Source of the DNA: a virus | Taxonomy: Duplodnaviria > Heunggongvirae > Uroviricota > Caudoviricetes | Reading direction: 5' to 3' (one strand) | DNA length: 64,000 nt | Virus record (IMG/VR): IMGVR_UViG_3300027601_000004 | In this document: piece after piece, positions 725 to 48,175 of the stretch | How the letters are laid out: the number at the start of each line of letters is the position of its first letter | Position numbering within the stretch: the stretch's first letter is position 1 | Position numbers and translations under genes: made by a program | Notes under the pieces: model-generated | What the model was told of the DNA's origin: nothing | Databases searched by the model: none | The model's input: the letters and a program-made list of their open reading frames with translations, nothing else

Positions 725-1378
725 ATGAAACTTATTAGAGAAGTTACAGAATCCGTTAATGTCATTACTGAGAGCAAACTCGGTAAAGGTAAACAATATT
801 ATATTGAAGGTGTTTTCCTTCAATCAGATTTAACAAACCGTAATAATCGCACTTATCCAGAACAGATTATGGATAAAGAAGTTGCTCGTTATATGGAGCA
901 ATGCGTTAAACAAAATCGTGCATATGGCGAACTAGGTCATCCAGATTCACCATCTATTAATTTAGATCGTGTATCACATTTAATTGTTGACTTACGCAAA
1001 GAAGGTACGAACTATATCGGTAAAGCAAAGATTTTAGAAACTCCAATGGGTCAAATCGCCAGAGGTCTTTTAGATGGTGGTGCAAACTTAGGAGTATCTT
1101 CAAGAGCACTTGGTTCTCTACAAATGAACAAAGAGGGTGTTCAAGTGGTTCAGGATGACTTTATGCTGTCTACTGCAGCAGACATCGTTGCTGACCCATC
1201 CGCTCCAGATGCTTTCGTCCGTGGTATTATGGAAAGCAGAGAGTGGGTATTCGTTGATGGAAAGTTTGTGGAAAAGCAGATTGATGAAGTTAAATCTTTT
1301 ATTAGAAAAACTTCGTCCCGTAATCTAGAGGAAGCCAAGCTACGTGCTTTCCAAGATTTTCTGACTAAAATCAGATAA
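725..1378 (+). CDS. 21: Prohead core protease (T4 gp21 family).
   Basis: YIEGVFLQSDLTNRNNRTYP, GELGHP, GVSSRALGSL and DPSAPDAFV match T4 gp21 blocks; position is upstream of scaffold and MCP. Confidence 0.93.
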   Translation: MKLIREVTESVNVITESKLGKGKQYYIEGVFLQSDLTNRNNRTYPEQIMDKEVARYMEQCVKQNRAYGELGHPDSPSINLDRVSHLIVDLRKEGTNYIGKAKILETPMGQIARGLLDGGANLGVSSRALGSLQMNKEGVQVVQDDFMLSTAADIVADPSAPDAFVRGIMESREWVFVDGKFVEKQIDEVKSFIRKTSSRNLEEAKLRAFQDFLTKIR

Positions 1379-1420
1379 ATAATAAATAATTACATAGAAC
1401 TATCCAGTTAGGAGAAAACG

Positions 1421-2413
1421 ATGTCAATCGAACAAAAAATCGCTGAAATTCTTGCTGAGTCAAAAGCTGCTGCTCTCGAGCAACAAGTTGCTGACAATCA
1501 AGAAACTGTAGTAGAAGAGGAAGTTGAAGCTGTTGCTGAAGAAGCAGTTAAGCCAACTACTCCTCCTGCCAATCCAGACAACGCTAGAAATAACGTTGAT
1601 AAAGAGAAAGCAGCTGAGGGTGGTACTTCAAAGACAAAGAACAAAGTAAACCAAGATGAAGAAGCAGCTGAAGCCAGCCATCTTCCAATCAAAGGTGTAA
1701 AAGAAGATATTGATGCACTTATGAATGGTGAAGAACTCTCTGAAGAGTTCCGTACTAAAGCTACTACCATTTATGAAGCAGCAGTTACTACTCGTGTAAA
1801 AGCAGAAGTAGCTCGCATCGAAGAAGAATACGCTACTAAACTCGAAGAAGAAGTAGCAGAAATTGCAGAGGGTCTTGTTGAAAAGGTTGATGGATATCTC
1901 GACTACGTTGTCGAGCAGTGGATTGCACAGAATGAAATAGCCCTTGAGCATGGTATGAAGTCCGAAATCCTTGAAGGATTTGTTGCTGGACTAAAAGGTC
2001 TTTTCGAAGAACACTATATCGATATTCCAGAAGAGAAGTTCGATGTATTAGGTTCAATGGAAAGTAAAGTTGAAGAACTCGAAGCAAAACTAAACGAGCA
2101 AGTTGCGACTAACGTTGAATTGAATAAAACAATCGGCGAACTAAAGCGTAATGAAATCGTTGAAACTGCATGCGAAGGTTTAACTGATACTGAAGTAGAA
2201 AAACTAAAAGGTTTAGCAGAAGAACTTTCTTATGAAGATTCTGACACTTTTAAAACAAAAGTACAGACTATTCGTGAGAATTATTTCACTACCAAGCAAC
2301 AAGCGGAAGTAACATCCGTGGTAACTGATGAGCCAGTGGAAACTTTGACTGAGGAAAAGAAAATTGATCCTACAATGGCAAAGTATCTATCCGCACTCAA
2401 CTATCGCAAGTAA
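1421..2413 (+). CDS. 22: Prohead scaffolding protein (T4 gp22-like).
   Basis: Highly acidic, Glu-rich, coiled-coil protein lying between the protease and the major capsid gene. Confidence 0.8.
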   Translation: MSIEQKIAEILAESKAAALEQQVADNQETVVEEEVEAVAEEAVKPTTPPANPDNARNNVDKEKAAEGGTSKTKNKVNQDEEAAEASHLPIKGVKEDIDALMNGEELSEEFRTKATTIYEAAVTTRVKAEVARIEEEYATKLEEEVAEIAEGLVEKVDGYLDYVVEQWIAQNEIALEHGMKSEILEGFVAGLKGLFEEHYIDIPEEKFDVLGSMESKVEELEAKLNEQVATNVELNKTIGELKRNEIVETACEGLTDTEVEKLKGLAEELSYEDSDTFKTKVQTIRENYFTTKQQAEVTSVVTDEPVETLTEEKKIDPTMAKYLSALNYRK

Positions 2414-2436
2414 TCATTTCAAAAAAGGAAAATAAA

Positions 2437-3708
2437 ATGAATCGTCAAGATTTACTAAAAAAATGGGCACCGATTCTAGAATCTGAATCTGCTCCAAAAA
2501 TCGCTGACAACTATCGTAAAGAAGTTACAGCAGTTCTATTAGAGAACCAAGAGCGTGAGATGGCTAAGCAATCTGAAGCTCTTTTCGAAGCAGTTCCAGC
2601 TAACGCTGGTGGTACTGGTGTTGCTCTAGGTGGCGCAGGTACTAACGCTAACATGGCAGGCTACGATCCAGTATTGATCGCTTTAGTTCGTCGTGCAGCT
2701 CCACAATTAATCGCTTATGACATCGCTGGCGTTCAGCCAATGACTCAGCCAACTGGTTTGATCTTCGCAATGAAGAGCAAGTATACTAGCCAAGCTGGCG
2801 CAGAAGCATTGTTCAACGAAGCCGATACTGACTTCTCTGGTACAGGTACTCACGCTGGTTCTAACCCAGTTGATGGTACTTACACTACTGGTACTGGTAT
2901 CACTACTGCTAACGCAGAAGATCTAGGTGGCGCAACTGCTTTCAATCAAATGGCTTTCTCAATCGAGAAGACAACTGTAACTGCACAAACTCGTGCTTTG
3001 AAAGCAGAATACACTGTTGAACTTGCACAAGACTTGAAAGCAGTTCATGGTCTTGATGCTGAAGGCGAATTGAGCAACATTCTTTCTTCAGAAATCCAAG
3101 CTGAAATTAACCGTGAAGTTGTACGTACTGTATACGCTGCTGCTAAAGTTGGCGCAGAAGTAAACACTGCAACTGCTGGTACTTTCGACATGGACGTTGA
3201 CTCAAATGGTCGTTGGTCTGTTGAGAAATTCAAAGGTTTGATGTTCCAAATCGAACGTGAAGCCAATGCGATTGCTCAGACTACTCGTCGTGGTCGTGGT
3301 AACTTCATCATCTGCTCAAGCGATGTTGCATCAGCACTAGCAATGGCAGGTGTTCTAGACTATACTCCAGCACTTGCTGGCAACAATGGTCTGAACGTTG
3401 ATGAGTCATCTACTACTTTCGCAGGTGTTCTAAACGGTAAGTACAAAGTGTATGTTGACCCATATTCTGCTAACCAATCAGCAAGCCAGTTCTTCGTTGT
3501 TGGTTACAAGGGTTCTTCAGCATTTGATGCTGGTCTATTCTACTGCCCATACGTTCCATTACAAATGGTTCGTGCAGTTGACCCATCAACTTTCCAACCT
3601 AAGATTGGTTTCAAGACTCGTTACGGTATGGTTGCAAACCCATTCACTAGCTTGTCTTCTGGCACTAACATCTACTACCGTAAGGTAAAAGTAACTAACT
3701 TGATGTAA
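2437..3708 (+). CDS. 23: Major capsid protein (T4 gp23 family).
   Basis: DPVLIALVRRAAPQLIAYDIAGVQPM, ELAQDLKAVHGLDAEGELS, GNFIICSSDVASALA and FQPKIGFKTRYGMVANPF are close matches to T4 gp23. Confidence 0.97.
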   Translation: MNRQDLLKKWAPILESESAPKIADNYRKEVTAVLLENQEREMAKQSEALFEAVPANAGGTGVALGGAGTNANMAGYDPVLIALVRRAAPQLIAYDIAGVQPMTQPTGLIFAMKSKYTSQAGAEALFNEADTDFSGTGTHAGSNPVDGTYTTGTGITTANAEDLGGATAFNQMAFSIEKTTVTAQTRALKAEYTVELAQDLKAVHGLDAEGELSNILSSEIQAEINREVVRTVYAAAKVGAEVNTATAGTFDMDVDSNGRWSVEKFKGLMFQIEREANAIAQTTRRGRGNFIICSSDVASALAMAGVLDYTPALAGNNGLNVDESSTTFAGVLNGKYKVYVDPYSANQSASQFFVVGYKGSSAFDAGLFYCPYVPLQMVRAVDPSTFQPKIGFKTRYGMVANPFTSLSSGTNIYYRKVKVTNLM

Positions 3709-9863: not shown

Positions 9864-10171
9864 TGCAACAACTTGAGATCCAGTATTTCTTTCCATTAAC
9901 AGAACAGATTCCACTTGATTTAGATTTTACACCATGTGTTGAATATGCTGCTAGCAAAAATGTTGGATCCGTTATTTCTGGTTCTGGATTATGTTTGTCT
10001 ATTGGTAATGGTGGTACTGTAGGTTGGACCACTATCTCAAATAATCTTGGCTCGCCATCTTTTACTATTAATGTAGATGCTATGCCAATTACTGTTATTT
10101 CTAAAAAGAAACCCAACTTCATAATGAGATTCATTTATAAGTCTATGGGTATGAAATGGAAGAGTGAATGA
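9863..10171 (+). CDS. Hypothetical protein between gp47 and gp46.
   Basis: ORF with ATGA overlaps at both ends. Confidence 0.35.
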   Translation: MQQLEIQYFFPLTEQIPLDLDFTPCVEYAASKNVGSVISGSGLCLSIGNGGTVGWTTISNNLGSPSFTINVDAMPITVISKKKPNFIMRFIYKSMGMKWKSE

Positions 10172-11880: not shown

Positions 11881-11881
11881 A

Positions 11882-11908
11882 ACCCTACGTTCTGTAGGGT
11901 TATTTTTT
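11882..11908 (+). terminator. Rho-independent terminator (ACCCTAC-GTTCT-GTAGGGT followed by a T-run).
   Basis: 7-bp stem plus TATTTTTT; first member of the CCCTAC/GTAGGG hairpin family. Confidence 0.8.
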
Positions 11909-11977
11909 CCAATAAAATCAACGACTTACGATAGTGCTTTACAAATAATCAAAACTCGGGCATAATTCTACTATAGA

Positions 11978-12163
11978 ATGGAGAAAATTATGCAAAACCA
12001 GTGGAGTAGTTTTGATGACTTTGAATTGGCAAGTCTTTGCCACAAGTATGATATTGGTAATGTGTGTGAGTTTGAACACATCCTACCGATAAAGTTGGCA
12101 AATCGTGATGTGGTTGAGCAAGCATTGACTGAGTTTGAATTTGATATGGCATTTGGAGAATAA
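11978..12163 (+). CDS. Small hypothetical protein (61 aa).
   Basis: ORF with a GGAGAAAATTATG RBS. Confidence 0.3.
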   Translation: MEKIMQNQWSSFDDFELASLCHKYDIGNVCEFEHILPIKLANRDVVEQALTEFEFDMAFGE

Positions 12164-12169
12164 TATATT

Positions 12170-15851: not shown

Positions 15852-15853
15852 AC

Positions 15854-15882
15854 TTGACAAATAATCAGGTTTAAGGTAGAAT
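15854..15882 (+). promoter_or_regulatory. Sigma70-type promoter TTGACA-17-TAGAAT.
   Basis: Consensus -35 with an exact 17-nt spacer. Confidence 0.55.
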
Positions 15883-15924
15883 TGTTATTGTAGTTGATTA
15901 TTAACTTTGAAAGGTGTATATATT

Positions 15925-34828: not shown

Positions 34829-36130
34829 ATGACAGTTAAAGTTATTGTCGCTGATAAAAAGATTGATTGTAAACATTTGATTGGTCAATTCGTTGACGAG
34901 AATCATTACGACCATCTTATCGAAGAAGATACTGATGTTTATATGCCAGCACCTTATGGTGAAGATCCTATCAATGAAGACAGGATTGTATTGAAGTTCC
35001 GTAAGAACTTCTTCACCAAAGAACAACAAGACCAAGCGTATGCAGGTCTTCGTGAAGCTGCAACTGAAACACAGAATCGTGGCGCAGCAGCAGGTCCACG
35101 TGGTGAGAAGTTGGGTAATCGTGAATGGGTTACTGAGTATGAATCTGAGATGGTTGAATACTTCCTTGACCCATACTCTGGTCTTGCAGGAGATCCTGTA
35201 GAAGATATTATCAAACGCTATAAGGGTAAACCACCTACTCCATCTAATCGCAATAATGTTTGGTCGATTGAAAGAACTAAGTCAACCAATTTTAATTTCG
35301 ATCAGTGGGTTGAGAAAGTGCGTACACTTCCACGACAAGAACAAATTAAAGAAGCAAACTTTGTTGCTGATGAATTGATTTGTGCAACCACTTACGCTAA
35401 CTCAGTTTATTCTGGCATCGCAGGTTGGTTCGATCGTTATCCTCGCATTCCTTATGGTCGTGCAACATCTTACACTGCCAAGAATCCTGAGAAGTTTGCA
35501 CTTGCTTACCCATTCCTACAAACATTGTCAAATGGTTTTAGGGATCTACTACCACAGCGTTATGAAGCACAGATGAAAGCAGCGAGACAAGTTGATCCTC
35601 GTTTCCTAGTTCCTGGAACTCCATTCACAACTGTTACTGTGAATAAAACATTCAGAACTGCTGCTCACTATGACGTTGGCGATTTAAATAGTGGTCTTTC
35701 AAATCTACTAACTTTGTCAAATGATGGACGTTACAGTGGTGGTTATTTGATTGCACCTGAGTATCGTGTTGCTGTTAATCCACGTCCAGGCGACTTGCTA
35801 TTGATTAACAACCATGATGTTATGCATGGCAACACTCCTATCGTTTGTGAAGAAGGTTCTGAGCGTATCAGTTTGGTTTGCTACTTCCGTGAGAAGATGC
35901 TTGAGTTGGGTTCTTGGGAATATGAGAACTGTCGTTATGACTTCGTTGAACAACGTCGCAAGAATCCTGAACATCCGATGCAACGTAAACTTTGGAATGG
36001 TGTTTCCGAAGGTATGTGGACTTCTGACGAGTGGTACGACTATTGTCGTGAAAAACTTGGAGATGAAATCCTAATTAAATATCATCCAGAATCAATGAAG
36101 TCTGGATCACTTGATGAATTTTTTGCGTAA
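34829..36130 (+). CDS. 2OG-Fe(II) dioxygenase; TET/JBP-like candidate for nucleic-acid base oxidation.
   Basis: HYD (HxD), then HGNT about 57 aa later, then RISLV (RxS) 10 aa after that: a classic DSBH facial triad plus 2OG-binding Arg. Confidence 0.55.
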   Translation: MTVKVIVADKKIDCKHLIGQFVDENHYDHLIEEDTDVYMPAPYGEDPINEDRIVLKFRKNFFTKEQQDQAYAGLREAATETQNRGAAAGPRGEKLGNREWVTEYESEMVEYFLDPYSGLAGDPVEDIIKRYKGKPPTPSNRNNVWSIERTKSTNFNFDQWVEKVRTLPRQEQIKEANFVADELICATTYANSVYSGIAGWFDRYPRIPYGRATSYTAKNPEKFALAYPFLQTLSNGFRDLLPQRYEAQMKAARQVDPRFLVPGTPFTTVTVNKTFRTAAHYDVGDLNSGLSNLLTLSNDGRYSGGYLIAPEYRVAVNPRPGDLLLINNHDVMHGNTPIVCEEGSERISLVCYFREKMLELGSWEYENCRYDFVEQRRKNPEHPMQRKLWNGVSEGMWTSDEWYDYCREKLGDEILIKYHPESMKSGSLDEFFA

Positions 36131-36138
36131 GGTTTATT

Positions 36139-37146
36139 ATGTCACTACATGAGTTTCTAGGTGAAGAAAGGTTGTTAGAGTGGTTCTATTCAAAGAACTC
36201 TAGCAATACTGGAACTAAAATTGGTTATCGCAGAGTTTCTGGTAAGATTGGTTTGACCAACAAAGAGAATGGTGTTCGTGGAGCATGGGTAGAGAAACGT
36301 GTTGCTCTGTTCAAGAACATGCTTGATTTTGGTCATCGAATCATTCCACTATCAGAAGCAACTGATGCAACCAAAGATGATGGGTTTGAAACATTTGACA
36401 CATATCAAGATTGTGATGTTCTCATGCTTGAGTTTGGTGGAACTAATTTGCAGTTCTATCAGAAGTACTGGGATAAAACTGTTGAGATGATTAAAGCACA
36501 TAAGGGTCGCATCATCTTTTTGAATGACGATCCAGATCTTCCATTCCTTTGGGAGTTGTTACCTGATGAAGATTGGTCACGTTGGACTATTGCAGCCAAT
36601 GCGACTGAGTGTAATGAAGTTGCAACTATCCTGAAGTGTCCTATCGGAACTACAACTGTTGATTTACCCATGGCATCTGGTATGGAGTTTGCTGAATTTC
36701 ATCCAGGTAATATTGAGAAGGTGGTTTACATTGGTAGACCAAATGGCAGAACCAAATACTTCAAAGAGTTTACTTCTTCACGTTGTCTTCAAGTTGCAGG
36801 TAAAGAAGCTGAATGGGATGATTTTGAAGCACTTGAGATTCTACCAAACCCACAGCAAAGAGATCGTAGAAAGTTCTATCAACAGTTCTATGGCTGTCTA
36901 GCTGTCTATGACGATAAACATAAGAAGTCTGGTTGGAGAACTGGTCGTGCATATCATGCTCTTTATGCAGGTATTCCTGTCTGCGCACCGAAAGGTAACA
37001 ATGGTTTGAATTGGTGTTTCCCTACAGATACCAAAATGGAGTTGGATAAGTTTGCGTCATTCCCAGAGGAAGTCCGTAGAAATATCTGGGAAAAGCAGAA
37101 AGCTGTTGTAGAAAAGACTGGAAAGGTTGATCCATTAATCCTATGA
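36139..37146 (+). CDS. Putative glycosyltransferase or other group transferase (GT-B-like C-terminal half).
   Basis: C-terminal WRTGRAYHALYAGIPVCAP resembles the GT-B donor-binding helix; sits immediately next to the dioxygenase. Confidence 0.35.
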   Translation: MSLHEFLGEERLLEWFYSKNSSNTGTKIGYRRVSGKIGLTNKENGVRGAWVEKRVALFKNMLDFGHRIIPLSEATDATKDDGFETFDTYQDCDVLMLEFGGTNLQFYQKYWDKTVEMIKAHKGRIIFLNDDPDLPFLWELLPDEDWSRWTIAANATECNEVATILKCPIGTTTVDLPMASGMEFAEFHPGNIEKVVYIGRPNGRTKYFKEFTSSRCLQVAGKEAEWDDFEALEILPNPQQRDRRKFYQQFYGCLAVYDDKHKKSGWRTGRAYHALYAGIPVCAPKGNNGLNWCFPTDTKMELDKFASFPEEVRRNIWEKQKAVVEKTGKVDPLIL

Positions 37147-37595
37147 TAGTTTCTTATGACATCGATGGGGTTCTGGCTGCTCAGCCACCGCCATCCGAAA
37201 TGAAGTGGGGTAAAATGAATGGGGTTCAAAGAAAGGCTAGGAAGGACTTTTTGTACGATTGGTACGAGAATGCCGAGAAACTTATAGAGCCAGTTGAGAC
37301 CCAATTTTACGCCATTTCTGCAAGAAAACGAGAGCCAAGAATACATACAATCACAAAAGACTGGCTGAATAAATATTATGGTGGAAGAGTAATTTCCTTC
37401 CATCTTCTAGATAATACCAGAACTGTTGAAAATGTAGTCCGATTTAAGTCCGAAAGGGTGCTTGAATTGGGTATACAACGACATTATGAAGACAACAAAA
37501 AAGTACTGAGAGGGATGCGCAAACTGTTACCCCAAACTGTTGAGTTGTATTTTTGGGAAAGGGGTATGCAGGAGCCAGTTCCTTTTATCAAATAG
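37143..37595 (+). CDS. HAD-superfamily 5'(3')-deoxyribonucleotidase-like (NT5C-type) protein.
   Basis: N-terminal YDIDGVLA matches HAD motif I as it appears in NT5C enzymes. Confidence 0.45.
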   Translation: MIVSYDIDGVLAAQPPPSEMKWGKMNGVQRKARKDFLYDWYENAEKLIEPVETQFYAISARKREPRIHTITKDWLNKYYGGRVISFHLLDNTRTVENVVRFKSERVLELGIQRHYEDNKKVLRGMRKLLPQTVELYFWERGMQEPVPFIK

Positions 37596-38320: not shown

Positions 38321-38337
38321 TACAATAATTATTGTAC
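38320..38337 (+). promoter_or_regulatory. Perfect 18-bp palindrome GTACAATAATTATTGTAC; candidate operator.
   Basis: Half-site TACAATAAT equals the conserved -35 block of the repeated early promoters. Confidence 0.4.
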
Positions 38338-38346
38338 GGGGTTCCC

Positions 38347-39150
38347 ATGGCACAAAAAGGTTTCGATTACGAGAGAAACGCACATAACGTATTGAAAGAA
38401 TACAAAATCACTGTAGGTGATCCAGCTGGCGCATCGCACGATAAACCAGATCTTTCTATCGTCACTAAAAGTATATCAACATCAACAGGATGTGAGTTAA
38501 AGATATCCCCAACTGCAGCAGGATCTCTAGTATTAAAATACTACAACGGTAAGTGGGCATTCGCTGAAGACCTTAAAGGCGATCCTGAGAAAATCATGAT
38601 GCGAGATATCGCAACTCAATACAACCTTCTCCAAGAAATGAATGTATCGGGTACTGCTGGTGAGAAGTGGAGAAGTAAAGTTCCTATTCTACAGAATGAC
38701 CAAGCTGGTAGAAAAATACTTACTGGTGGTATTAAAGACAAACGCAAAGCGTATGAAATTGATATACAAAGTTATAAGGGTGAGAACGAGGTCCACATAA
38801 CAGTCCCAGCTAAGGCTATCTGTGACTACTACAATAAGAAGAAAACCTACTACATCAATGTAGGTACTCATGGGTTCTATTTAATGAATAAATTCGATCC
38901 GTTAAAATTGAATGCCAAGCTAACCAAGAAGATCGAAGATTTCTCAAACTGCACATCAGCTAGAATCAGAACTAGATGCCAGCCAAAGGGTGGTGGCGAT
39001 TACCAGTTCGTTATGACTTTAGAATTTTCAAACCTAAGAAAATCTCTCTATAACCTAGCACCCATTACATCCCAAAATAACGTCACTATTAATAGAACAG
39101 CTTACAGCTTAACTGACAATCAGTCTCTACTTAAAGCATTCGCTTCATAG
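38347..39150 (+). CDS. Hypothetical protein (267 aa).
   Basis: ORF; ATG with a GGGG RBS after the palindrome. Confidence 0.45.
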   Translation: MAQKGFDYERNAHNVLKEYKITVGDPAGASHDKPDLSIVTKSISTSTGCELKISPTAAGSLVLKYYNGKWAFAEDLKGDPEKIMMRDIATQYNLLQEMNVSGTAGEKWRSKVPILQNDQAGRKILTGGIKDKRKAYEIDIQSYKGENEVHITVPAKAICDYYNKKKTYYINVGTHGFYLMNKFDPLKLNAKLTKKIEDFSNCTSARIRTRCQPKGGGDYQFVMTLEFSNLRKSLYNLAPITSQNNVTINRTAYSLTDNQSLLKAFAS

Positions 39151-39155
39151 ACTTT

Positions 39156-39163
39156 TATAAATA
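39156..39163 (+). promoter_or_regulatory. TATAAATA late-promoter-like box upstream of the His-rich gene array.
   Basis: Exact T4 late-promoter octamer about 115 nt upstream of 39271/39280. Confidence 0.35.
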
Positions 39164-39231: not shown

Positions 39232-39260
39232 TTTACTTTATTGTAAAAGTAGGGTATAAT
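39232..39260 (+). promoter_or_regulatory. Early promoter TTTACT-17-TATAAT with a TGCTTTA MotA-box-like sequence.
   Basis: Exact 17-nt spacer and consensus -10. Confidence 0.6.
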
Positions 39261-39270: not shown

Positions 39271-40473
39271 ATGGGTAAAATGAAGTCGTTCCAAACATTC
39301 CTTAAAGAAGAAACCGAAGAAGAGAAACTGAAGCACATCCATCATGTAGAGGATCGCCCTCTATTCCATGGTTCTTCAGGGTTCGAACATGCTCTTGGTG
39401 CACTAAACCATGGACATGAACACATTAAAGCTGGGAAACAATCCAGCGATCTGACCATGAAATATGACGGATCGCCATCATTGGTTTTTGGAAAGCATCC
39501 AGAAACTGGAAAATTCTTTGTTGCTTCCAAGTCAGCGTTCAATAAAAACCCAAAAATCAACTATACTGCTAAGGACATTGACAAGAACCATGGTCATGCT
39601 CCAGGTCTCGCAGAAAAATTAAAGCATGCTCTAAAACATCTACCAAAGGTTGCACCTAAGCAAGGTGTATATCAGGGTGACGTTATGCACTCTGAGGGTG
39701 ATGTTAAATATGATGAGAAGAAGGGAACTGCTTCTTATACACCAAATACAATTAAGTATACTGCGCATGGCGATGAAGCCAAGAAAACAGCCCAATCTAA
39801 ATTTGGGTTAGTTGTTCACCAAAAATATGAGGGTAAAGATTTTGCTTCGATGAAAGCAACTCCTCATCCTGATATGAAAAGTTTTGGTCAACACAAAGAT
39901 GTGCATCTTGCTGGTGCCGAGCATGATACTAGCAAAGTTAAATATACTCAAGCAGATCAGAAAAGATTCCAAAGCCACATGAATGCTGCAAAAGATATTC
40001 ATGATAAACACGGCGATAAGATGTATGGTGCGATCCATCCAGAACACAAAGGTGATGCTGGACATTTGGGAACTTACATCAATCAAACAGTTCGCAAAGA
40101 TACAAAACCAAACGCAAAAGGATTCATTAAACATATTCAGGATGTTTATGAAAAGAAAGCGTCTAAACTAAAGTCTGAGAAGGGACAAACTGCTCAGCGT
40201 AATCTTGGTTCTGGTCACGCTGCGCATGTTGAGAAAAATAAAGAGCATTATGAGAATCTATTTAAAATGCATCAGCATTTACAGCAAGGTAAAAACCTTT
40301 TAGTTAAGAATTTAAACCAGCATACTGGCGGTCTTGAGCATCATATTGGAGATAAGAAAACAGATCCTGAGGGATATGTTATAAATTATACGCACAAAGG
40401 TAAACAAGAACCATCTAAAATTGTTAATCGTGCAGAATTCAGTAAAGCCAACTTATTAAAGCCAAGAAAATGA
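39271..40473 (+). CDS. His/Lys-rich paralog 1, with a degenerate nucleotidyltransferase-like motif. The second ATG at 39280 (MKSFQTF) is probably the true start.
   Basis: The N-terminus MKSFQTFLKEE is shared with the next two genes; KYDGSPSL block; 17% His+Lys; low complexity. Confidence 0.6.
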   Translation: MGKMKSFQTFLKEETEEEKLKHIHHVEDRPLFHGSSGFEHALGALNHGHEHIKAGKQSSDLTMKYDGSPSLVFGKHPETGKFFVASKSAFNKNPKINYTAKDIDKNHGHAPGLAEKLKHALKHLPKVAPKQGVYQGDVMHSEGDVKYDEKKGTASYTPNTIKYTAHGDEAKKTAQSKFGLVVHQKYEGKDFASMKATPHPDMKSFGQHKDVHLAGAEHDTSKVKYTQADQKRFQSHMNAAKDIHDKHGDKMYGAIHPEHKGDAGHLGTYINQTVRKDTKPNAKGFIKHIQDVYEKKASKLKSEKGQTAQRNLGSGHAAHVEKNKEHYENLFKMHQHLQQGKNLLVKNLNQHTGGLEHHIGDKKTDPEGYVINYTHKGKQEPSKIVNRAEFSKANLLKPRK

Positions 40474-41084
40474 AGACATTTAAATCTTATATTGTAGAAT
40501 CAGAAAAAGACGTTCATCATGTTCTTGCTTTTGGTCGAATGAATCCTCCAACTGCTGGTCATGAGAAACTCGTAACCCATATGCATGATACTGCCAAGAA
40601 ACATAATGCAGAACATACATTGGTATTATCAGGTTCGCATGCAACTAAAGACGGATCTAATCCATTACCACCTGATGTTAAAAAGAAACATGCAGAGAGA
40701 GCATTTCCTGGAACCAATGTTAAGGTAGCTGATAAAGAACATCCTACTGTTCTTCATCATGCTGCTGAGTTGCACAAAAAAGGTGTTACTCATTTACACT
40801 TTGCTGGTGGCGATGATCGTAAACCAATGCATGAATTGATTAAAAAGTATAATGGAAAAGAAGGTCCACATGGACATTACAATTTCAAGAGTATAAAGTT
40901 CCACAATGCAGGTAAACGTGATCCAAATGCAAAAGGAACTGAAGGTATTTCTGGAACTAAACTTCGTGGTCACGCTGCAGCTGGTGAACAGAAAAAGTTT
41001 GAATCTCATCTATCGTCACAGATGAAACCAGAACATAAAACAGAATTGTATCACGACTTACGTAAACATATGGGTGTAAAGTAA
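40470..41084 (+). CDS. His/Lys-rich paralog 2; HIGH-signature nucleotidyltransferase-like (cytidylyl-/adenylyltransferase superfamily).
   Basis: VLAFGRMNPPTAGHEKLV is a (T/H)xGH motif preceded by FGR.NP; a C-terminal ISGTKLRG resembles the ISxTxxR motif of NMNAT/PPAT-type enzymes. Confidence 0.55.
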   Translation: MKTFKSYIVESEKDVHHVLAFGRMNPPTAGHEKLVTHMHDTAKKHNAEHTLVLSGSHATKDGSNPLPPDVKKKHAERAFPGTNVKVADKEHPTVLHHAAELHKKGVTHLHFAGGDDRKPMHELIKKYNGKEGPHGHYNFKSIKFHNAGKRDPNAKGTEGISGTKLRGHAAAGEQKKFESHLSSQMKPEHKTELYHDLRKHMGVK

Positions 41085-42130
41085 TGAAAAATTTTAAATC
41101 GTTCTTAGCAGAAGAACAATACTACGAAGAATTGCTTATCGAAGCAGCTGATGATGCTTCCAAAGAGGGTGGTGTTTCCAATAACACTAAAGGTGTGTTG
41201 CACGAACTATTAGTCGGCAAACATTTAAATGGTGGTAAGCATCTAGAGAAACACAAGAATGAAAACGATGAAACACCTGAGCAAGCACACGAGAGATTAA
41301 AGAAACAAATTCACCCTAAAGATTATGATAAGATCGCTAAAAATGCAGAGAGTGCTGCCAATCATATTAAGGCACATATCGATTCTACTCACAAAGGGCA
41401 TAAGATTTCAGCAGTGCATTGGACTTCAAAACCTGGAGATACAGAAAAGGTAACTGGTCACAAAGCAACACAGAAAGAAGATTCTTCTGACGTTTATGTA
41501 ACTACCAAGCATCCAAAGACAGGTAAAGAACATCATCATGGCGTAAGTTTAAAAGTCAGCGATAAGTCCAGTAAAAACATTCCGTCTTCAAGTCTTGGTA
41601 TGGAATCTGGTGGTTCAAAAGCCAGACAGCATTATAAAGATCATCAAGACGCAATACTTGCTGCTCATCCTAAATTAAAAGGTAAGAATAAAGACCAGCG
41701 TAAAGAAATTGCAAAAGCAGATCCTAAGTTGCATGATGATATTAAGAAACGCAACAAAGAACTTTTACATAAAGTTGCTCACGATCATGCTGCTGAGTTG
41801 CAGCACCACTTAGACAACAATAACCACGACCATGTAGTTAAACATATTCGTGAAGTTCTACATGCACATAAGACTCCTGCAGAAGAAAAGGGGCACAGTT
41901 TTATTAAGCATACAACATATCAAACTGCTAAGGGTGTTCAACACCATACAAGTAAGCCAAGCGAAGACCACGAACATATCCTTAAAGACCATAAGAATAT
42001 TACAGTTAAATCCAGTGGTGGCTCTGTTCACTTCTATCACAATGGTAAGAAGTTTGCTTCTCAAGCCCATAAGTTCGACTCTCAATCTGATCCATTAAGT
42101 TCATTAAAGAGTGCAGGTAAAGCTGTATGA
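41084..42130 (+). CDS. His/Lys-rich paralog 3; degenerate motif (NNTKGVLHELLV).
   Basis: N-terminus MKNFKSFLAEE; very His-rich (HHHG, HDHAAELQHHLDNNNHDHVVKH). Confidence 0.55.
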   Translation: MKNFKSFLAEEQYYEELLIEAADDASKEGGVSNNTKGVLHELLVGKHLNGGKHLEKHKNENDETPEQAHERLKKQIHPKDYDKIAKNAESAANHIKAHIDSTHKGHKISAVHWTSKPGDTEKVTGHKATQKEDSSDVYVTTKHPKTGKEHHHGVSLKVSDKSSKNIPSSSLGMESGGSKARQHYKDHQDAILAAHPKLKGKNKDQRKEIAKADPKLHDDIKKRNKELLHKVAHDHAAELQHHLDNNNHDHVVKHIREVLHAHKTPAEEKGHSFIKHTTYQTAKGVQHHTSKPSEDHEHILKDHKNITVKSSGGSVHFYHNGKKFASQAHKFDSQSDPLSSLKSAGKAV

Positions 42131-42474
42131 AAAAGTTAATACTGATTCTTGCCGTAGTTTCTTTATCTGCATGTTCTGTTATCCTACCAAGACCACACGA
42201 CCCAGAAATGTTTGGTCGTTTAGTTGATACCAAAATAGCAGTTGATAAATTAGAATGTGGTAATCAGTTAATGTTCCAAAACGCAGACGAGTATATCGAG
42301 AGATTAAAAGTTTATGCTGTTTTAAGATCTGACCCACAAGCAGAAGCTATTGGAAAATTGCAAGAAGCTATCAAGAAAGCAGGAGAATCCAAGAACAAAG
42401 TATTCTGCGAATCTGTTGTTAAAACAAATAAAGTTAGAATCGATGTAATAGTAGATGCTTGGAAAGGAAGATAA
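42127..42474 (+). CDS. Lipoprotein (115 aa).
   Basis: Signal peptide with lipobox LSAC. Confidence 0.5.
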   Translation: MKKLILILAVVSLSACSVILPRPHDPEMFGRLVDTKIAVDKLECGNQLMFQNADEYIERLKVYAVLRSDPQAEAIGKLQEAIKKAGESKNKVFCESVVKTNKVRIDVIVDAWKGR

Positions 42475-42662
42475 TGACTACATTTACAACTGAAGATAGA
42501 TTAGTAGCAGAAGCACCTTATCATCCAGGATATGAATCTATAGGATTAGAAGAAATTAAGAATCCAATTATGGATGAGGTAAATGAATATCGTGCATATA
42601 AAGCACGACATATGAAAACTGCCAAAGGTATTGTTGAATTTTTAAGGGGTCCAAGATGCTAG
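42459..42662 (+). CDS. Small hypothetical (67 aa).
   Basis: ORF. Confidence 0.3.
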   Translation: MERKIMTTFTTEDRLVAEAPYHPGYESIGLEEIKNPIMDEVNEYRAYKARHMKTAKGIVEFLRGPRC

Positions 42663-42886
42663 AACAATTAAGAGAAGCAGCAGGAATGGGTGGTCCAGCA
42701 GCAGCATTGGCGAACGAGTTATTGGTTATTCGTGAAAATTATGAACAGGGACAGCTATCCAAAGAAGAATATGAGTATTTGGTCAATGAAATCGCTGAAA
42801 TTCGTGCCCAACAGGAGTTAGCCACAGACGAGGTAGCCTGTCGTTGGATCGTTGCAGCAGCAAAAGCGTTAATTAGCGTGGCATAA
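42656..42886 (+). CDS. Small hypothetical (76 aa).
   Basis: ORF. Confidence 0.3.
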   Translation: MLEQLREAAGMGGPAAALANELLVIRENYEQGQLSKEEYEYLVNEIAEIRAQQELATDEVACRWIVAAAKALISVA

Positions 42887-42929
42887 TTGCCTAAATAAAT
42901 GAATAGAAATTACTTTATAGATGGATTAA

Positions 42930-44810
42930 ATGAAAGATTACAGACAACTAATCAAAGAACTACCGTCCAGTACTATTGTTTGTGCAGTTAGCGAGTTTAA
43001 CCCTCCTACAATCGGTCACGAACTACTAGTCAAGACAGTCAAAAAACTGGCAGAACAAAAAAATTCTGACCACGTAATCTATACATCCCCATCTAAGAAC
43101 AGTATTATCCAAGAAGATAAGAAAGAACATTATCTAAATTTAATGTTCCCAAATACTTCTTTTAAAAGTATCACATCTTTATCGGAAACGATTAAAGATT
43201 TGTCGCAGAAGTATAAACATGTTGTATTGGTTGTCGGCAGCGAACAATCAGCCAGCTTGAAAAAAATTGTTAAAGAATCAAGTTCCATTCAGATTATTTC
43301 TACTTTAGATAAAGACCCAGATGTAAATTCTTCAAAGATGAAATCTTTTGCTACTAAAGGAATTTTTGAAGAGTTTAAGAAAAAGTTGCCAAGTTCTGTT
43401 CGTGAGTTAGATGGTCGTCGTTTGATGAACGATGTCCGTATTACGATGGGTTTAGAACCAATTAAAGAGCAGCTTAATTTGGTCAAAGATACTGTACGTG
43501 AACAATATTTCCGTGGTGAAATTTTTAATGTCGGAGATATCGTTGAATGTAGTGGAGAAAAATTAGCAGTAGTTAAACGTGGCTCAAACCATTTACTACT
43601 TAAAGAAGCTAGTGGCAAATTAGTTTCTAAATGGATACAAGACGTAATACCAACGGAAGAAAAAGAAATGAACGAAGACTTAACAGATAAGACTTTAAAA
43701 ACCAACGATAAGATTAAAGTTGCTCGAGTAATCGCAACTATGCTTGGTGTGGATAAAGTTGAGGCAACTGCAAACGCTGAGTTGCTTGTTAATACTGCAC
43801 TACGCAGAATCAAATCCAAGACTTTGAATCCAGAAGCATTGAACATTGTTAATAAGATGTTACAACTGGCTAACCAAGTTGGTATTCAATATGACACAAA
43901 TTTAATTCCACAGAAACTTACTCAAGAAGAAACTTCTTTGGATGAAGCAACTCCATATTATAATAAACCTTCTTTCATCAAGAGAATGTCTCGCATGGCG
44001 AAACAAGAAAGACAGGAACGTGAGAAAAAAGAAAAAGAACAGAAGAAAGATGTAAAAGAGAATCACTGCAAACCTGGACATAGTTTAGTTGAACCAGGAG
44101 CATCTGAAACTTTACGCAAACAAAAAATTAAACAACAATTGGGTGAAGTAGCTCCAGTTGATGTGAGCAAAGTTAATCATGCTGGCGATGAACCACATGA
44201 TGAAGAATGGGAAGATACTGGTATTTGTCCAGTACACAACGTAAAGCATGGCGAAGAAGGATGTGAACACACTAGAGATGTGTTAGAAAAAGAATTAGAT
44301 CTTACTGATGAAGAAATCGATCACATTATTAATACTACACCAGATGATGAATTCATCGATGAGTATGAAGATGATGAGTTTGGTATTATCGATCCAGATA
44401 CTGGCGAAGAATATGACGATGAAGAATGTGCTTGCACAATGCAAGAGCAAGCAATTCTGGAAGTTCTTTCAAGAACAGAACGTATGCGTGCAAGAGTTCG
44501 TTTTGCAAAATCTAAGGCTAAGCGTGAACGTAAAGCATCCATCGCATTAAGAACTCGTGCCACCACTAAGACTACAAACAAACGTGCACGTCGTCTTGCA
44601 ATTAAGTTAATGAAGAAACGTCTACTCCGTGGTCGTGACTATAACAAACTTTCAGTTGGAGAGAAAGAGCGTGTAGAAAGAGTTATTCAAAGACGCAAAC
44701 AAGTTATCGGTCGTGTAGCAATGAAACTTGTTCCACGTATTCGTGCTGTTGAGAAAGCAAGATTATCACATACAAAATATACTAAAGGATCTGGAAATGT
44801 TGCGTTTTAA
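42930..44810 (+). CDS. Large paralog 4: N-terminal HIGH-signature nucleotidyltransferase-like domain, an acidic middle region, and a strongly basic Arg/Lys C-terminus.
   Basis: VSEFNPPTIGHELLV in the same architecture as paralog 2; the C-terminal 150 aa is about 35% R/K; a CTAAATA sequence lies 35 nt upstream. Confidence 0.55.
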   Translation: MKDYRQLIKELPSSTIVCAVSEFNPPTIGHELLVKTVKKLAEQKNSDHVIYTSPSKNSIIQEDKKEHYLNLMFPNTSFKSITSLSETIKDLSQKYKHVVLVVGSEQSASLKKIVKESSSIQIISTLDKDPDVNSSKMKSFATKGIFEEFKKKLPSSVRELDGRRLMNDVRITMGLEPIKEQLNLVKDTVREQYFRGEIFNVGDIVECSGEKLAVVKRGSNHLLLKEASGKLVSKWIQDVIPTEEKEMNEDLTDKTLKTNDKIKVARVIATMLGVDKVEATANAELLVNTALRRIKSKTLNPEALNIVNKMLQLANQVGIQYDTNLIPQKLTQEETSLDEATPYYNKPSFIKRMSRMAKQERQEREKKEKEQKKDVKENHCKPGHSLVEPGASETLRKQKIKQQLGEVAPVDVSKVNHAGDEPHDEEWEDTGICPVHNVKHGEEGCEHTRDVLEKELDLTDEEIDHIINTTPDDEFIDEYEDDEFGIIDPDTGEEYDDEECACTMQEQAILEVLSRTERMRARVRFAKSKAKRERKASIALRTRATTKTTNKRARRLAIKLMKKRLLRGRDYNKLSVGEKERVERVIQRRKQVIGRVAMKLVPRIRAVEKARLSHTKYTKGSGNVAF

Positions 44811-45294
44811 AGATTACCTTACAGAAGATAATGCCAAACATGATGAGGCAGAAGAGCATTTATCAAAAGCCAATGACGCTGAATCTAAAGGTGATATGAA
44901 GTCATTTCATGCACACATGGCGGATCATCATGATGCTATGTCCGAGTGGCATGAGTCGAAGGGTCGTTCGGCATCAGCAGACAAGCATGCTGAAAAGGCA
45001 GATGAACACCATGAAAAATCTTTAACTGTTAAAGAAGCAGCTGTTGATGCAAAAGGATTTAAATCTTCAACTGGTGGCTTGACACAAAAGGGTCGAGATC
45101 ATTATAACAGAACAGAGGGTGGCAATCTTAAAGCACCTGTAACAACACCACCATCAAAATTAAAAGCTGGTAGCAAAGCTGCCAATCGTCGCAAGTCTTT
45201 CTGTGCCAGAATGTCTGGCGTAGAAGGACCAATGAAGAAGCCAAATGGCGAGCCAACTCGTAAAGCATTGGCATTAAGAAAATGGAATTGTTAA
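44797..45294 (+). CDS. His-rich basic protein (165 aa).
   Basis: ATG with an AAAGGA RBS in the +1 frame at the end of the previous gene; HAHMADHHDAMSEWHE. Confidence 0.45.
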   Translation: MLRFKDYLTEDNAKHDEAEEHLSKANDAESKGDMKSFHAHMADHHDAMSEWHESKGRSASADKHAEKADEHHEKSLTVKEAAVDAKGFKSSTGGLTQKGRDHYNRTEGGNLKAPVTTPPSKLKAGSKAANRRKSFCARMSGVEGPMKKPNGEPTRKALALRKWNC

Positions 45295-45295
45295 T

Positions 45296-45742
45296 ATGAA
45301 TGAAACTTTAGTTACTGCGAAAATTTGCTTAGCAAATACATTCTTAATGTATTTTAAGGCACAATCTTATCATTGGAACTTGGAAGGGATGTTCTTTCCA
45401 CAGTATCATGAATTTTTTGGCAATCTTTATGAAGAAATTTATGGAGCAGTTGATCCAATGGCAGAAGAGATGCGTGCGCTTGATGAGTATGCTCCAAAGA
45501 ATATAGAAGAAATGTATAAAGTTACAACTATCGATAATGATAATAACGCTAGTAATGTAACTGAAATGCTGCAAGATTTACAAGAAGCCAACAATAAAAC
45601 CATCGAGAGCCTAAATAAACTGTTCGATCTATTATCGAAAGACAAAGAGCAGGGTTTTGCTGATTTTATTGCTGGAAGATTGGATGCTCACAAGAAACAT
45701 GGTTGGATGATACGTTCCAGCTTAAAGAAAATTGGAGAATAA
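45296..45742 (+). CDS. dps: Dps / ferritin-like protein.
   Basis: FLMYFKAQSYHWNLEGMFFPQYHEFFGNLYEEIYGAVDPMAEEMRAL carries the Dps ferroxidase-site spacing (HW..G..F..H.......E....D...E); the C-terminal HKKHGWMIRS is typical. Confidence 0.65.
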   Translation: MNETLVTAKICLANTFLMYFKAQSYHWNLEGMFFPQYHEFFGNLYEEIYGAVDPMAEEMRALDEYAPKNIEEMYKVTTIDNDNNASNVTEMLQDLQEANNKTIESLNKLFDLLSKDKEQGFADFIAGRLDAHKKHGWMIRSSLKKIGE

Positions 45743-45745: not shown

Positions 45746-48175
45746 ATGGCAAAAAAGAAATTTGCAGATTTAGCCAGTGCTTGCTGGAAAGGCTATAAAG
45801 CAGTTGGTTTAAAGGATAAGAATGGAAGAAAAGTTCCTAACTGTGTTCCTGAAGAAACAGAAGTAGCTGACGATATTATCGAAGCTAGAGTGTTTGCAAC
45901 TTATCAAGATGCGAAAGCTGCTGCAGCACCTGGACAAAAACCTAAGTTGAACCCATCAAATAACAAGTATATTTTAGTTTCTGAAGAAACTATTGACGAA
46001 GAAGATGATTACTCTAGACGTCATACTGTAGTTGCTCATGTTTCTGATAATACTGGAACTCCTGCTGATGGTGAGAAGCGTGAAGTTATAAAGAAAGCAC
46101 TATCTATATTGGCAGCAACTCCAAAGCATGCAGAGCGTGCTGCAAGAAAACATTTCTCTGACAAAGGATATAAAGTTCATAAAATCTCAGCGAAATTAAA
46201 AGAAGAAGTTGAGTTAGAAGAAGCCACAGTAAGCAAGAAAGATTATTCTTGGGGTAAGATGATGACTGTTCATCACGGCAAAGATATTTCTTATCCTCTA
46301 CATCCAGAACACCAAAAGATTGTTAAGGGTTTACGACCAAGTGGTGAACATTCGAAGGCTATGTATAAAGATGAAACTGGTAATCAAGTTCATGTAACAC
46401 GTGAAGATGACAAAGTTCATTTTGTTTCTCACAGAACATCAGGCAGTAAGAAAACTACTGTTGATTACAAACACTTTGATGAATCAGTTCCAGCAAAGAA
46501 CACTGACATTGCCGATAAGAGTTATTTAAAAGATATGGGTAAGAAACCATCTATCAAATCAGATTTGAAAAACTTTAAGAACTTCTTGACAGGTAAGAAA
46601 GAAACCAACGAAGAAGTTGAAATAGAAGAAGCTAGTCAAACTTGGAATCATGCTAAGGTCAAAAAGAATACAGTTCACGGTACATATCATTCATCTTCAA
46701 TGGATGTTTATGGTAATATGACTGCGCATAAAAAAGGTTTCAAAACTTCTAAAGAAGCTGACGATCACGGAAAGAGTATTACTGGTAAACGCACTAAAGC
46801 GTATCATCCTGGAGAAAGAACTCGTGCAGTTTATGTTGATGAGTCAGTTGAACAAGTGGTGGAAGCAGCACCATTCAAAACTAAAGAAGATGCTGTGAAG
46901 TATGCTAAAGAAAAAGTTAAAACCCATCGTGACAATCTTGATGGTATTGAGATTTATGCTCATAGTGGTGGCTTTGATGTTAACCACACTATGAACGCTA
47001 GTGGTCGCAACTCTCTACAAAAGATTAAAGCAAAACATATTGGAACTATCTACAAAGAAGAAGTTGAAATGGAAGAAGGTTACTACCAAAAGCCAGCATC
47101 TGCTTATCGTCGTAAAGGTGACGAGATTGGTGGTGGTTCTTCTAAGAATAGTGTTCCATTTGATGGTCCATATACAAAGACTAAACCTGTTAAAAACTCA
47201 GATGGCACTACTCAATCACCAATGAGTCGTGCACGTGAACTTGCTAAACAAGCTATTGCTGCAAAGAGTAAAATCAAAGAAGACGTTGTTGATGAACAAG
47301 CTCCAGTTGCTCCAGTTCCAGATAAGAAGTATATCAAAGGAACACCTGAGAATAAAGCATACAAAGCAACTAAGAAACCAATCAATGGTCATCCAACTAA
47401 TAAGGTGTCCTGCGAAGAAGTTGAACAGATCGATGAATTAGATCAGAAAACTTTAAAGTCATATGTTAGAAAGAATTTAAAGTCTGGCGATACTAGTGAT
47501 AAAAGAGATGCGGGGTTGTACACGGCAACCAATAAGATTGCCAAAAAACAAGCAACATCAACTCTCGATAAAAAAGTTAAAACCCTTGGTCAGACAAGAC
47601 CTAGTGAAGTGAAAAACCGATATGAATATGAAGCATCTCGTTCTGAATTGAAGAACAGAGGTATTCATCATTTCGCAGGTCGCAGAACTAGAACTGAAGA
47701 AGTCGAACAAGTTGACGAGAAAGCACCTCCAGGATTTGAGGGTACTGTTAAAGCAATGAAGAAGCATAAAGAAATTGATAATCCTTTTGCTCTTGCATGG
47801 TATATGAAGAATAAGGGTATGAAGAGTCATAAAGAAGAAGTGGAACAATTTGACGATAACGGAGAGGTAATAACTAACATGAAAACATATAAAGAGTTTG
47901 TAGAATCTCTTGATGAGGTTAAAATGGCTGACTTACCAGTACGTAAAGTGAGTGGTCGTGGTTATGGTACTGAGTATTATAAGGGTGAAGCCGAAGCAGA
48001 CAAAAAAGGTTACGACGATGAAGACAAGCCAGCTAAACCAGCTGCAGAGAAACGTGGTCGTGGTCGTCCAGCAGGTTCTACATCTGGCGCACGTCAGAAG
48101 GGAACTATTGCTAAGAGAAAAGGTAGTGGTGTCGAAATGACAGGCTATCCAGTACACTTGCCTAATTTCAAATAA
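45746..48175 (+). CDS. Lysine-rich 809-aa protein with six periodic EEVExEE/EEVEQxDE motifs and a C-terminal AT-hook (KRGRGRPAGS).
   Basis: Long ORF with an AATAAATGG RBS; 18% Lys; repeats at about aa 150, 290, 435, 555, 650 and 695. Confidence 0.6.
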   Translation: MAKKKFADLASACWKGYKAVGLKDKNGRKVPNCVPEETEVADDIIEARVFATYQDAKAAAAPGQKPKLNPSNNKYILVSEETIDEEDDYSRRHTVVAHVSDNTGTPADGEKREVIKKALSILAATPKHAERAARKHFSDKGYKVHKISAKLKEEVELEEATVSKKDYSWGKMMTVHHGKDISYPLHPEHQKIVKGLRPSGEHSKAMYKDETGNQVHVTREDDKVHFVSHRTSGSKKTTVDYKHFDESVPAKNTDIADKSYLKDMGKKPSIKSDLKNFKNFLTGKKETNEEVEIEEASQTWNHAKVKKNTVHGTYHSSSMDVYGNMTAHKKGFKTSKEADDHGKSITGKRTKAYHPGERTRAVYVDESVEQVVEAAPFKTKEDAVKYAKEKVKTHRDNLDGIEIYAHSGGFDVNHTMNASGRNSLQKIKAKHIGTIYKEEVEMEEGYYQKPASAYRRKGDEIGGGSSKNSVPFDGPYTKTKPVKNSDGTTQSPMSRARELAKQAIAAKSKIKEDVVDEQAPVAPVPDKKYIKGTPENKAYKATKKPINGHPTNKVSCEEVEQIDELDQKTLKSYVRKNLKSGDTSDKRDAGLYTATNKIAKKQATSTLDKKVKTLGQTRPSEVKNRYEYEASRSELKNRGIHHFAGRRTRTEEVEQVDEKAPPGFEGTVKAMKKHKEIDNPFALAWYMKNKGMKSHKEEVEQFDDNGEVITNMKTYKEFVESLDEVKMADLPVRKVSGRGYGTEYYKGEAEADKKGYDDEDKPAKPAAEKRGRGRPAGSTSGARQKGTIAKRKGSGVEMTGYPVHLPNFK

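Follow-up and report, generated by a model that had tools for sequence, protein, structure and literature searches.

An array of leader-bearing enzyme genes in a T4-like phage as candidate capsid-targeted, injected proteins

Protein packaging directed by a capsid targeting sequence (CTS) is established for bacteriophage T4, in which the internal proteins are abundant and basic and the CTS is the peptide MKTYQEFIAE (PMC8442874). Suppressor analysis in T4 has linked CTS residues 4 and 7 to targeting and residues 8 and 10 to processing (PMC9026906). The T4 head also carries an enzyme, the ADP-ribosyltransferase Alt, which is processed by the prohead protease and injected before phage genes are expressed (PMC9026906). 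For cyanophages, NMNAT-like proteins have often been found in virion proteomes (PMC9602691), and the enzyme annotated as 'cytidylyltransferase' is a known component of these proteomes (PMC9602691, PMC9146016, PMC10665884). Here we describe an array of five genes, A to E (39280 to 45294), in a 64,000-nucleotide stretch of a tailed virus of the Caudoviricetes (IMG/VR record IMGVR_UViG_3300027601_000004), hereafter called the window. The array includes homologues of the cyanophage enzyme, and its products share a CTS-like leader. In this phage, we consider A to E likely to encode proteins that are processed by the prohead protease, packaged together with the DNA and injected.

The array resembles the CTS-targeted internal proteins of T4 in its ten-residue leader, the gp21/gp22/gp23 machinery, the basic cargo, the clustering of the genes and the variability of the set. 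It differs in that large folded enzymes (204-626 aa) make up the cargo, in place of small proteins like the anti-restriction IPI* of T4, that the cargo is strikingly His-rich, and that the phage is a Kyanoviridae-like marine myovirus with a distantly related capsid protein, for which we infer cleavage and loading. Alt is likewise a head-carried enzyme; its fold and chemistry are different, however, and it has its own propeptides at both termini instead of a ten-residue leader of the internal-protein type. Closest in content are the 'NMNAT-like' or 'cytidylyltransferase' proteins S-SCSM1 ORF91, S-SZBM1_140, S-CREM2 gp154 and that of S-CBWM1, which are homologues of B and D. These proteins were found by mass spectrometry in CsCl-purified virions (PMC9602691, PMC9146016, PMC10665884). 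In those studies, unlike here, virion presence was not tied to an N-terminal targeting or cleavage signal and the enzyme was named by weak NMNAT or TagD similarity. In the window, moreover, the leader is also found on ligase-like, nuclease-like and DUF6321 cargo. What is new is therefore the scope, namely marine T4-like phages, and the unusual enzyme cargo.

A shared N-terminal leader in genes A to E

The window derives from a T4-like myovirus with a GC content of about 38% and all genes on the plus strand. It encodes a gp23-type capsid protein, gp43 polymerase, gp41, UvsW, gp46 and nrdA, as well as a gp21 protease, a gp22 scaffold protein and a tail tube protein. Among the Kyanoviridae, Methylophilales phage Melnitz, Pelagibacter phage HTVC008M and cyanomyophages have capsid proteins with 63-64% identity to that of the window; a megablast search of the region against 50,697 phage records gave no match. 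The array is located downstream of gp43-uvsX-gp41 in a module that is syntenic in Melnitz, HTVC008M, S-PM2, S-SZBM1 and Syn9. With this synteny, and with one component known from virion proteomes, we depart from the original prediction, a reading of the sequence alone, which had not recognised here any described T4-like module.

Gene A (39280..40473) begins with the leader MKSFQTFLKE, followed by a predicted DUF6267 ligase-like nucleotidyltransferase; gene B (40470..41084) with MKTFKSYIVE, followed by a single-domain HIGH-signature nucleotidyltransferase; gene C (41084..42130) with MKNFKSFLAE, ahead of a predicted MspI/HinP1I-like PD-(D/E)xK nuclease fold; gene D (42930..44810) with MKDYRQLIKE, ahead of a HIGH nucleotidyltransferase with extra domains; and gene E (44797..45294) with MLRFKDYLTE, in a protein whose N-terminal half is rich in His and which ends in a DUF6321 domain. 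An in-frame ATG at 39271, upstream of the gene A start at 39280, is probably not the true start. Stop and start codons overlap between A and B, B and C, and D and E, and three small leaderless open reading frames (ORFs) at 42127..42886 separate C from D.

The five leaders follow the ten-residue pattern M-(K/L)-x-(F/Y)-x-x-(F/Y/L)-(L/I)-x-E, and all five fit the four determinants of the T4 CTS (F/Y at position 4, F/Y/L at 7, L/I at 8 and E at 10). Among ATG-started frames of at least 50 residues, the pattern was found at 5 of 539 on the plus strand, all in the array, and at none on the minus strand. From the background frequencies of the window proteins it would be expected 0.08 times among the 88 gene starts and was seen four to five times (P ~2e-6); none of the other ~83 genes of the window carries it, highly expressed structural genes included. 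The plus-strand ORFs described in the original prediction are confirmed at their coordinates, and so are the near-identical N-termini, whose similarity is well beyond chance. The nucleotides of the five gene starts show no extended identity, indicating that selection acts on the peptide.

Conservation among homologues was examined as well. The leader is kept in 104 of 120 homologues of A and is also present in homologues of B and C. The linker behind it is acidic and variable, and leaders in a nine-residue register (MKFKEFLLE) are common too. Within each family some members carry the leader and others begin at the domain itself, that is, the leader behaves as a module placed before the same domain. 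C homologues show a second conserved L-x-E-A about ten residues after the leader, near residue 20. In AlphaFold2 (AF2) models the leader and linker have a predicted local distance difference test score (pLDDT) below 50 (residues 1-17 of A, 1-19 of C), while the domains reach about 90 or more. By analogy with T4, the shared N-termini of A to E are most likely a T4-type CTS.

Three other sources of the N-terminal match were rejected: a signal peptide, as the leader lacks hydrophobicity; a DNA cassette common to the five genes, since the nucleotides of the starts are not conserved; and low-complexity composition, which had been raised earlier as a possible origin of the shared motifs, since the pattern is position-specific and absent elsewhere in the window.

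Virion detection in relatives and expression signals

The whole 174,876-bp genome of cyanophage S-CREM2 (OR473000) was scanned for the leader at start codons. Seven matches were obtained, three of them internal or out of frame and four at annotated gene starts, namely gp6, a SAM hydrolase (MKDFDSFLEE), gp13 (MKDLHSFLTE), gp14, an APH-like kinase (VKRFDAFLTE), and gp154, a cytidylyltransferase (MKNFSSFLTE). All four annotated leader genes encode virion proteins detected by mass spectrometry. Mass spectrometry of purified S-SZBM1 virions reported 'one enzyme (cytidylyltransferase)', S-SZBM1_140 (PMC9146016). We find that this protein starts with a nine-residue variant of the leader, MRFRQFIIE, and is 35% identical to B; the adjacent leaderless DUF6267 gene, S-SZBM1_141, is missing from the published list of detected proteins. 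In Syn9, gp184 has the leader MKKFSAFLSE. The leader cleavage site was not mapped in the S-CREM2 and S-SZBM1 studies, so detection shows presence alone. Our literature search found no paper that ties cyanophages to a capsid targeting sequence.

Two further features of S-CREM2 were observed. The genes for gp6, gp13 and gp14 are clustered on the minus strand (3837-13331), and residues 19-25 of gp12, a virion protein described as 'Cas9-like', form a core resembling the leader, FASFMAE.

Upstream of the array, the late-promoter-like box mentioned in the original prediction was located: the T4-like octamer TATAAATA lies at 39156..39163 on the plus strand, about 115 nt ahead of gene A. It has two exact copies in the window, the other one just before the tail-tube gene. 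The heptamer ATAAATA occurs eight times, versus about 20 expected, always on the plus strand (1375, 1382, 3779, 20458, 37369, 39157, 48455 and 51685) and mostly just upstream of genes; the genes preceded by a copy include those for the gp22 scaffold and the tail tube, and one copy stands before the array. Such a distribution is in keeping with a late-promoter element under negative selection at other sites and, at the level of sequence, is suggestive of late transcription of the array. Directly 5' of gene A there is also a sigma-70-like match, TTTACT-17-TATAAT (39232..39260, plus strand), which agrees with 10 of 12 consensus positions; such matches occur in the region as often as in shuffled sequence and carry little weight.

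Several points weigh against the loading and injection of A to E. For this phage the argument is drawn from genes, the virion detections being those of other phages. Leaderless homologues exist (S-PM2d138, Syn9 gp183 and S-SZBM1_141), suggesting that the enzymes are not obligatorily packaged. The late-promoter box is a single 8-mer, and the sigma-70-like match stands ahead of gene A. None of the NMNAT, NadD, NadR and PPAT equivalog models comes near its cut-off on B or D, leaving the substrate of these two proteins not assignable. Finally, an active nuclease packed beside the genome calls for explanation.

The leader might alternatively have nothing to do with the capsid and instead serve in translation initiation, as an amphipathic helix or as another sorting or degradation signal, with the array encoding cytoplasmic enzymes, for example of NAD or RNA metabolism. 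The leaderless homologues and the sigma-70-like match would agree with such a role, MK- starts are common in highly expressed genes, and the cyanophage 'cytidylyltransferase' is classed by its authors as an auxiliary metabolic gene (PMC9146016). We nevertheless regard this explanation as unlikely, because the peptide pattern is conserved where the nucleotides of the starts are not, is missing from the ~83 other genes including highly expressed structural ones, coincides with the experimentally defined positions of the T4 CTS, and predicted S-CREM2 virion proteins in 4/4 cases, among them enzymes without a structural role. Capsid loading followed by injection is the best explanation of the data. 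Basic virion-internal proteins injected with the DNA had been the last option listed in the original prediction, in which the leader was not recognised as a CTS.

Folds and predicted activities of the encoded proteins

By sequence comparison, B and D are true paralogues (BLASTP 1.1e-10, 22% identity over 187 residues). B contains the motifs FGRMNPPTAGH and ISGTKLR, D contains SEFNPPTIGH and a weaker NSSKMK, and residues R23, N25, P26, G30 and H31 are present in at least 90% of B-family sequences. The motifs previously pointed out in B and D are all there, and the block N-x-(P/T)-T-x-G-H-E-x-L-V, formerly ascribed to four proteins, is the HIGH motif itself and is restricted to these two. B matches phrog_3041 (1e-48) and phrog_395 (1e-33), both 'cytidyltransferase', and D matches phrog_3041 (7.8e-33) over its HIGH domain, phrog_4808 on residues 183-242 and phrog_23027 on 505-615. 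On Pfam PF01467, B scores 13.9 bits and D 15.9 bits, both under the gathering cut-off of 21; 28 of 34 B homologues match this family at E <=0.01 (best 4.6e-7). When a diverse B-family profile was compared with the PDB, it matched MJ0951 (3gmi, 1.8e-6), PAPS synthetase (0.01) and PPAT (0.03), with both HxGH and ISxTxxR aligned in these matches. A shallow B profile gave noise, hence the need for the more diverse one, and phmmer searches of B and C against PDB sequences returned, as for A, composition-driven noise (antibody, ankyrin, ribosomal). On these sequence grounds, we place B and the N-terminal 175 residues of D among the HIGH-signature nucleotidyltransferases, in agreement with the original assignment. 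In NCBIfam no array family was found above cut-off, B and D matching the generic TIGR00125 domain alone (14-16 bits), and the virion proteins S-CREM2 gp154 and S-SZBM1_140 reach 13-25 bits on NMNAT equivalogs versus cut-offs of 112-341.

In D, the HIGH nucleotidyltransferase domain (residues ~11-175) is followed by a beta domain that is small and conserved (~183-242); an acidic linker then leads to a tail rich in Arg and Lys (~505-615). The virion proteins S-CREM2 gp154 and S-SZBM1_140 have this architecture too, as do the homologues in Melnitz (650 aa) and HTVC008M (596 aa).

Gene A belongs to Pfam DUF6267 (2.3e-96), and its AF2 model, built from 46 sequences, has a pLDDT of 90. Across homologues at 21-66% identity, K61, D63, G64, D134, E364, G365, V367, K380 and R384 are invariant. 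We infer from sequence and model that these residues correspond to ligase motifs, which are invariant or nearly so: K61-x-D63-G64 (motif I), Q132-G133-D134 (III), H180 (IIIa), E364-G365-x-V367 (IV) and K380-x-V-x-R384 (V). An N-terminal HxxHxED is also present. In the model, K61 ends a strand before a loop and motifs IV and V lie on adjacent strands. The closest structures are NgrRnl, T4 Rnl2 and TbREL1; a Foldseek search of the model against the PDB gave nothing significant, and neither phmmer of A against PDB sequences nor hhalign of its alignment against T4 Rnl2 detected ligase similarity. Weighing conserved residues and model together, we consider A reasonably likely to be a ligase-type covalent nucleotidyltransferase.

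A and B are fused into a single polypeptide in phrog_455, in many metagenomic proteins and in S-PM2 (S-PM2d138), suggesting that A and B work together, probably on one substrate. Like the ATP-dependent RNA ligases of the Rnl2/Rnl5/REL1 type, A has a KxDG, which is invariant, and residues resembling motifs III, IV and V, and its fusion or coupling to a nucleotidyltransferase recalls the phage RNA-repair pairs of ligase and RlaP (PMC7824862). Unlike these ligases, A carries a large helical insert (224-345) and the HxxHxED and has neither an oligonucleotide-binding (OB) nor an Rnl2-type C-terminal domain; unlike RlaP, its partner is HIGH-type and not Pol-beta-type, and no end-healing kinase/phosphatase is seen in the array. 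Literature searches on the name DUF6267 and on 'cytitidyltransferase' found no papers.

Gene C matches no Pfam or PHROG family. Its AF2 model (pLDDT 91.5) shows a restriction-endonuclease core fold with a conserved D...S-x-K triad, the combination that marks PD-(D/E)xK nucleases, and E41 and D136-X18-S155-x-K157 are invariant in 56 homologues. Judged by sequence and model, C is an MspI/HinP1I-like PD-(D/E)xK nuclease fold, with nuclease activity and specificity being predicted. It differs from MspI and HinP1I, which are monomeric type IIP enzymes, in its low identity (11-13%), in a Ser that replaces Gln/Asn at the middle triad position, in an extra C-terminal half (180-348), in the putative capsid-loading leader and in having no adjacent methyltransferase. 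SSGFEHALGA in A and NNTKGVLHELLVG in C had been read as degenerate HIGH motifs and the two proteins as possible pseudo-enzymes. Neither view holds, as the proteins have different folds, the ligase-type motifs of A are invariant and the D-X18-S-x-K of C is conserved. Gene E matches Pfam DUF6321 (1.2e-25) at residues 89-163.

Composition sets most of these proteins apart. Of the 88 window ORFs, A, B, C and E have the highest His contents (6.7-11.8% versus a median of 1.8%), with 13-15% Lys and an isoelectric point (pI) of 9.2-9.7; the values for E are 6.7% His and a pI of 9.3. D, at 2.2% His, is not His-rich, and the description of all array proteins as rich in His and Lys stands for the other four only. 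Median His content is 11.2%, 10.8% and 9.4% in close homologues of A, B and C, respectively, and 1-2% in the Melnitz, HTVC008M and S-PM2 homologues; leader-bearing S-SZBM1_140 has 6.4% versus 1.0% in its leaderless neighbour. A histidine content of about 10% is thus seen only in leader-bearing cargo and only in this clade.

Such values (His 9-12%, Lys 13-15%, pI >9), specific to leader proteins of the clade, could mean that the proteins are packaged mainly as structural or DNA-condensing components, through charge neutralisation by Lys and His, or as metal binders, their enzyme folds being non-catalytic relics. The 110-residue Arg/Lys tail of D and the abundant, basic internal proteins of T4 (PMC8442874) are in line with this. 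We find it quite improbable. Even deeply diverged homologues of A show little or no change in the putative catalytic lysine and in motifs I, III, IV and V, and the same holds for the HxGH and ISxTxxR motifs of B and the D-X18-S-x-K of C. In addition, the A-B fusion in many phages implies a joint enzymatic function, and the Melnitz and HTVC008M homologues keep the leader at 1-2% His.

Descent of the array from tandem duplication of one nucleotidyltransferase gene, with B and D active and A and C decayed to pseudo-enzymes, would account for the shared N-termini, the B-D relationship and the common His/Lys-rich composition of A, B and C, but it is largely refuted and very improbable, as A and C, past residue 17, are not significantly similar to B, D or each other, differ in fold (ligase-type and PD-(D/E)xK), retain catalytic-type residues that are invariant in divergent homologues, which is unexpected for pseudo-enzymes, and in the case of A have a Pfam family of their own (DUF6267, 2e-96). 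The four paralogues originally proposed are accordingly reduced to the pair B and D: all other pairs give E >=0.01 over short stretches only, the matches of A and C being confined to the first 12-17 residues or to brief segments driven by composition, and hidden Markov models (HMMs) built from A and C find no other array member.

A proposed route into the host and the surroundings of the array

By analogy with T4, we propose that A to E would be transcribed as an operon, as their overlapping stops and starts suggest, and probably late, as the late-promoter-like box suggests. The leader would bind the gp22-based scaffolding core, and the cargo would be enclosed as the gp23 shell assembles; the virion detection of leader-bearing homologues in other phages supports this loading step. 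A gp21-type protease would then cleave after Glu10 at (L/I)-x-E, with the basic, Lys/His-rich mature proteins staying in the head, and the cargo would leave the head together with the genome at infection and be active ahead of all phage gene expression. The head-assembly genes that would process and load the cargo lie at 725..3708 on the plus strand: a gp21-type prohead protease (725-1378; phrog_207, 2e-75), a gp22-type scaffold (1421-2413; phrog_237, 3e-83) with 24 [LIV]xE sites, and the gp23 major capsid protein (2437-3708; phrog_138, 1e-158) with LFE-A at residues 49-52. The role of the cargo is the weakest step of the proposal: as a guess, the enzymes would repair or modify nucleic-acid ends and attack host DNA, or serve in counter-defence, as the phage enters.

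A 433-aa ORF directly downstream of gp41 (34829-36130) has a TET/JBP 2-oxoglutarate- and iron-dependent (2OG-Fe) dioxygenase domain (PF12851, 3e-24, 85.5 bits versus a cut-off of 34.9). By its sequence, this ORF points to a phage DNA hypermodified with oxidised 5-methylpyrimidines. The two ORFs behind it (36139-37146 and 37143-37595) match no family. With such a dioxygenase, the cytosines of the phage may be modified and so protected from the packaged nuclease; the MspI/HinP1I-like nuclease could then attack host DNA while the modified phage DNA is spared, which we offer as a lead and not as a result.

More generally, we tentatively raise the possibility that marine T4-like phages (Kyanoviridae and relatives) use the T4-conserved leader to load a variable kit of active enzymes, consisting in this clade of a ligase-like DUF6267 enzyme, not recognised before, that works with a HIGH nucleotidyltransferase, plus a restriction-type nuclease. 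This kit would act within the first seconds of infection, in end repair or modification, in the supply of an adenylylated cofactor, or in cutting unmodified host DNA with TET-modified phage DNA spared, and about 10% His might be an adaptation to the DNA-filled capsid or to tail passage. If the leader rule holds, which for one cultured cyanophage was right about non-structural virion proteins in 4/4 cases, the injected proteins of abundant ocean phages could be read from genome or metagenome sequence. The rule would explain the recurrent 'NMNAT-like' enzymes of cyanophage virion proteomes, and with it DUF6267, DUF6321, the cyanophage 'cytidylyltransferase' and the new MspI-like family become candidates, open to testing, for enzymes that strike first in the conflict between phage and host.

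The array was also compared with related loci. A 165-kb relative (JGI contig Ga0673006_0000023) has four leader genes in a row (10001-12789), encoding a DUF6267 protein, a 201-aa His-rich protein, a 120-aa CWKGY-domain protein and a B homologue. A C homologue is absent from that array, and the partly different set indicates that the cargo varies between close relatives. The C-family HMM found no homologue at the loci of Melnitz, HTVC008M, S-PM2, S-SZBM1 and this contig; the ORFs preceding DUF6267 in Melnitz (361 aa) and HTVC008M (352 aa) are, with this HMM negative, not callable as C homologues.

The three leaderless ORFs between C and D, all on the plus strand, probably stand outside the cargo set and may be a moron insertion. 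The first (42127-42474) begins MKKLILILAVVSLSAC, is lipoprotein-like and has a weak PHROG match to Cor-like superinfection-exclusion proteins (E 0.004); the others are small (42459-42662 and 42656-42886). PADLOC defence models gave zero matches. Just 5' of the array, a leaderless 272-aa ORF (38332-39150; phrog_26930, 1e-13, no Pfam family) contains KPDLSI...CELKIS, which by eye is like a PD-(D/E)xK motif. On the other side, within the array region, a leaderless Dps/ferritin-like protein is encoded at 45296-45742 (PF00210, 8e-20; phrog_3636, 'DNA binding protein'), and the 165-kb relative likewise has a ferritin-family gene near its array (15469-15906). It is followed by an 809-aa basic ORF (45746-48175), which opens with a CWKGY Cys motif domain (phrog_9737) and has six EEVExx(E/D) linkers, at residues 153, 289, 438, 557, 651 and 697, that cut it into segments of 38-152 aa. 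To judge by its sequence, it looks like a protease-processed polyprotein, and it contains internal CTS-like stretches at residue 274 (LKNFKNFLTG) and at residue 712 (MKTYKEFVES, 6/10 identical to the T4 CTS).

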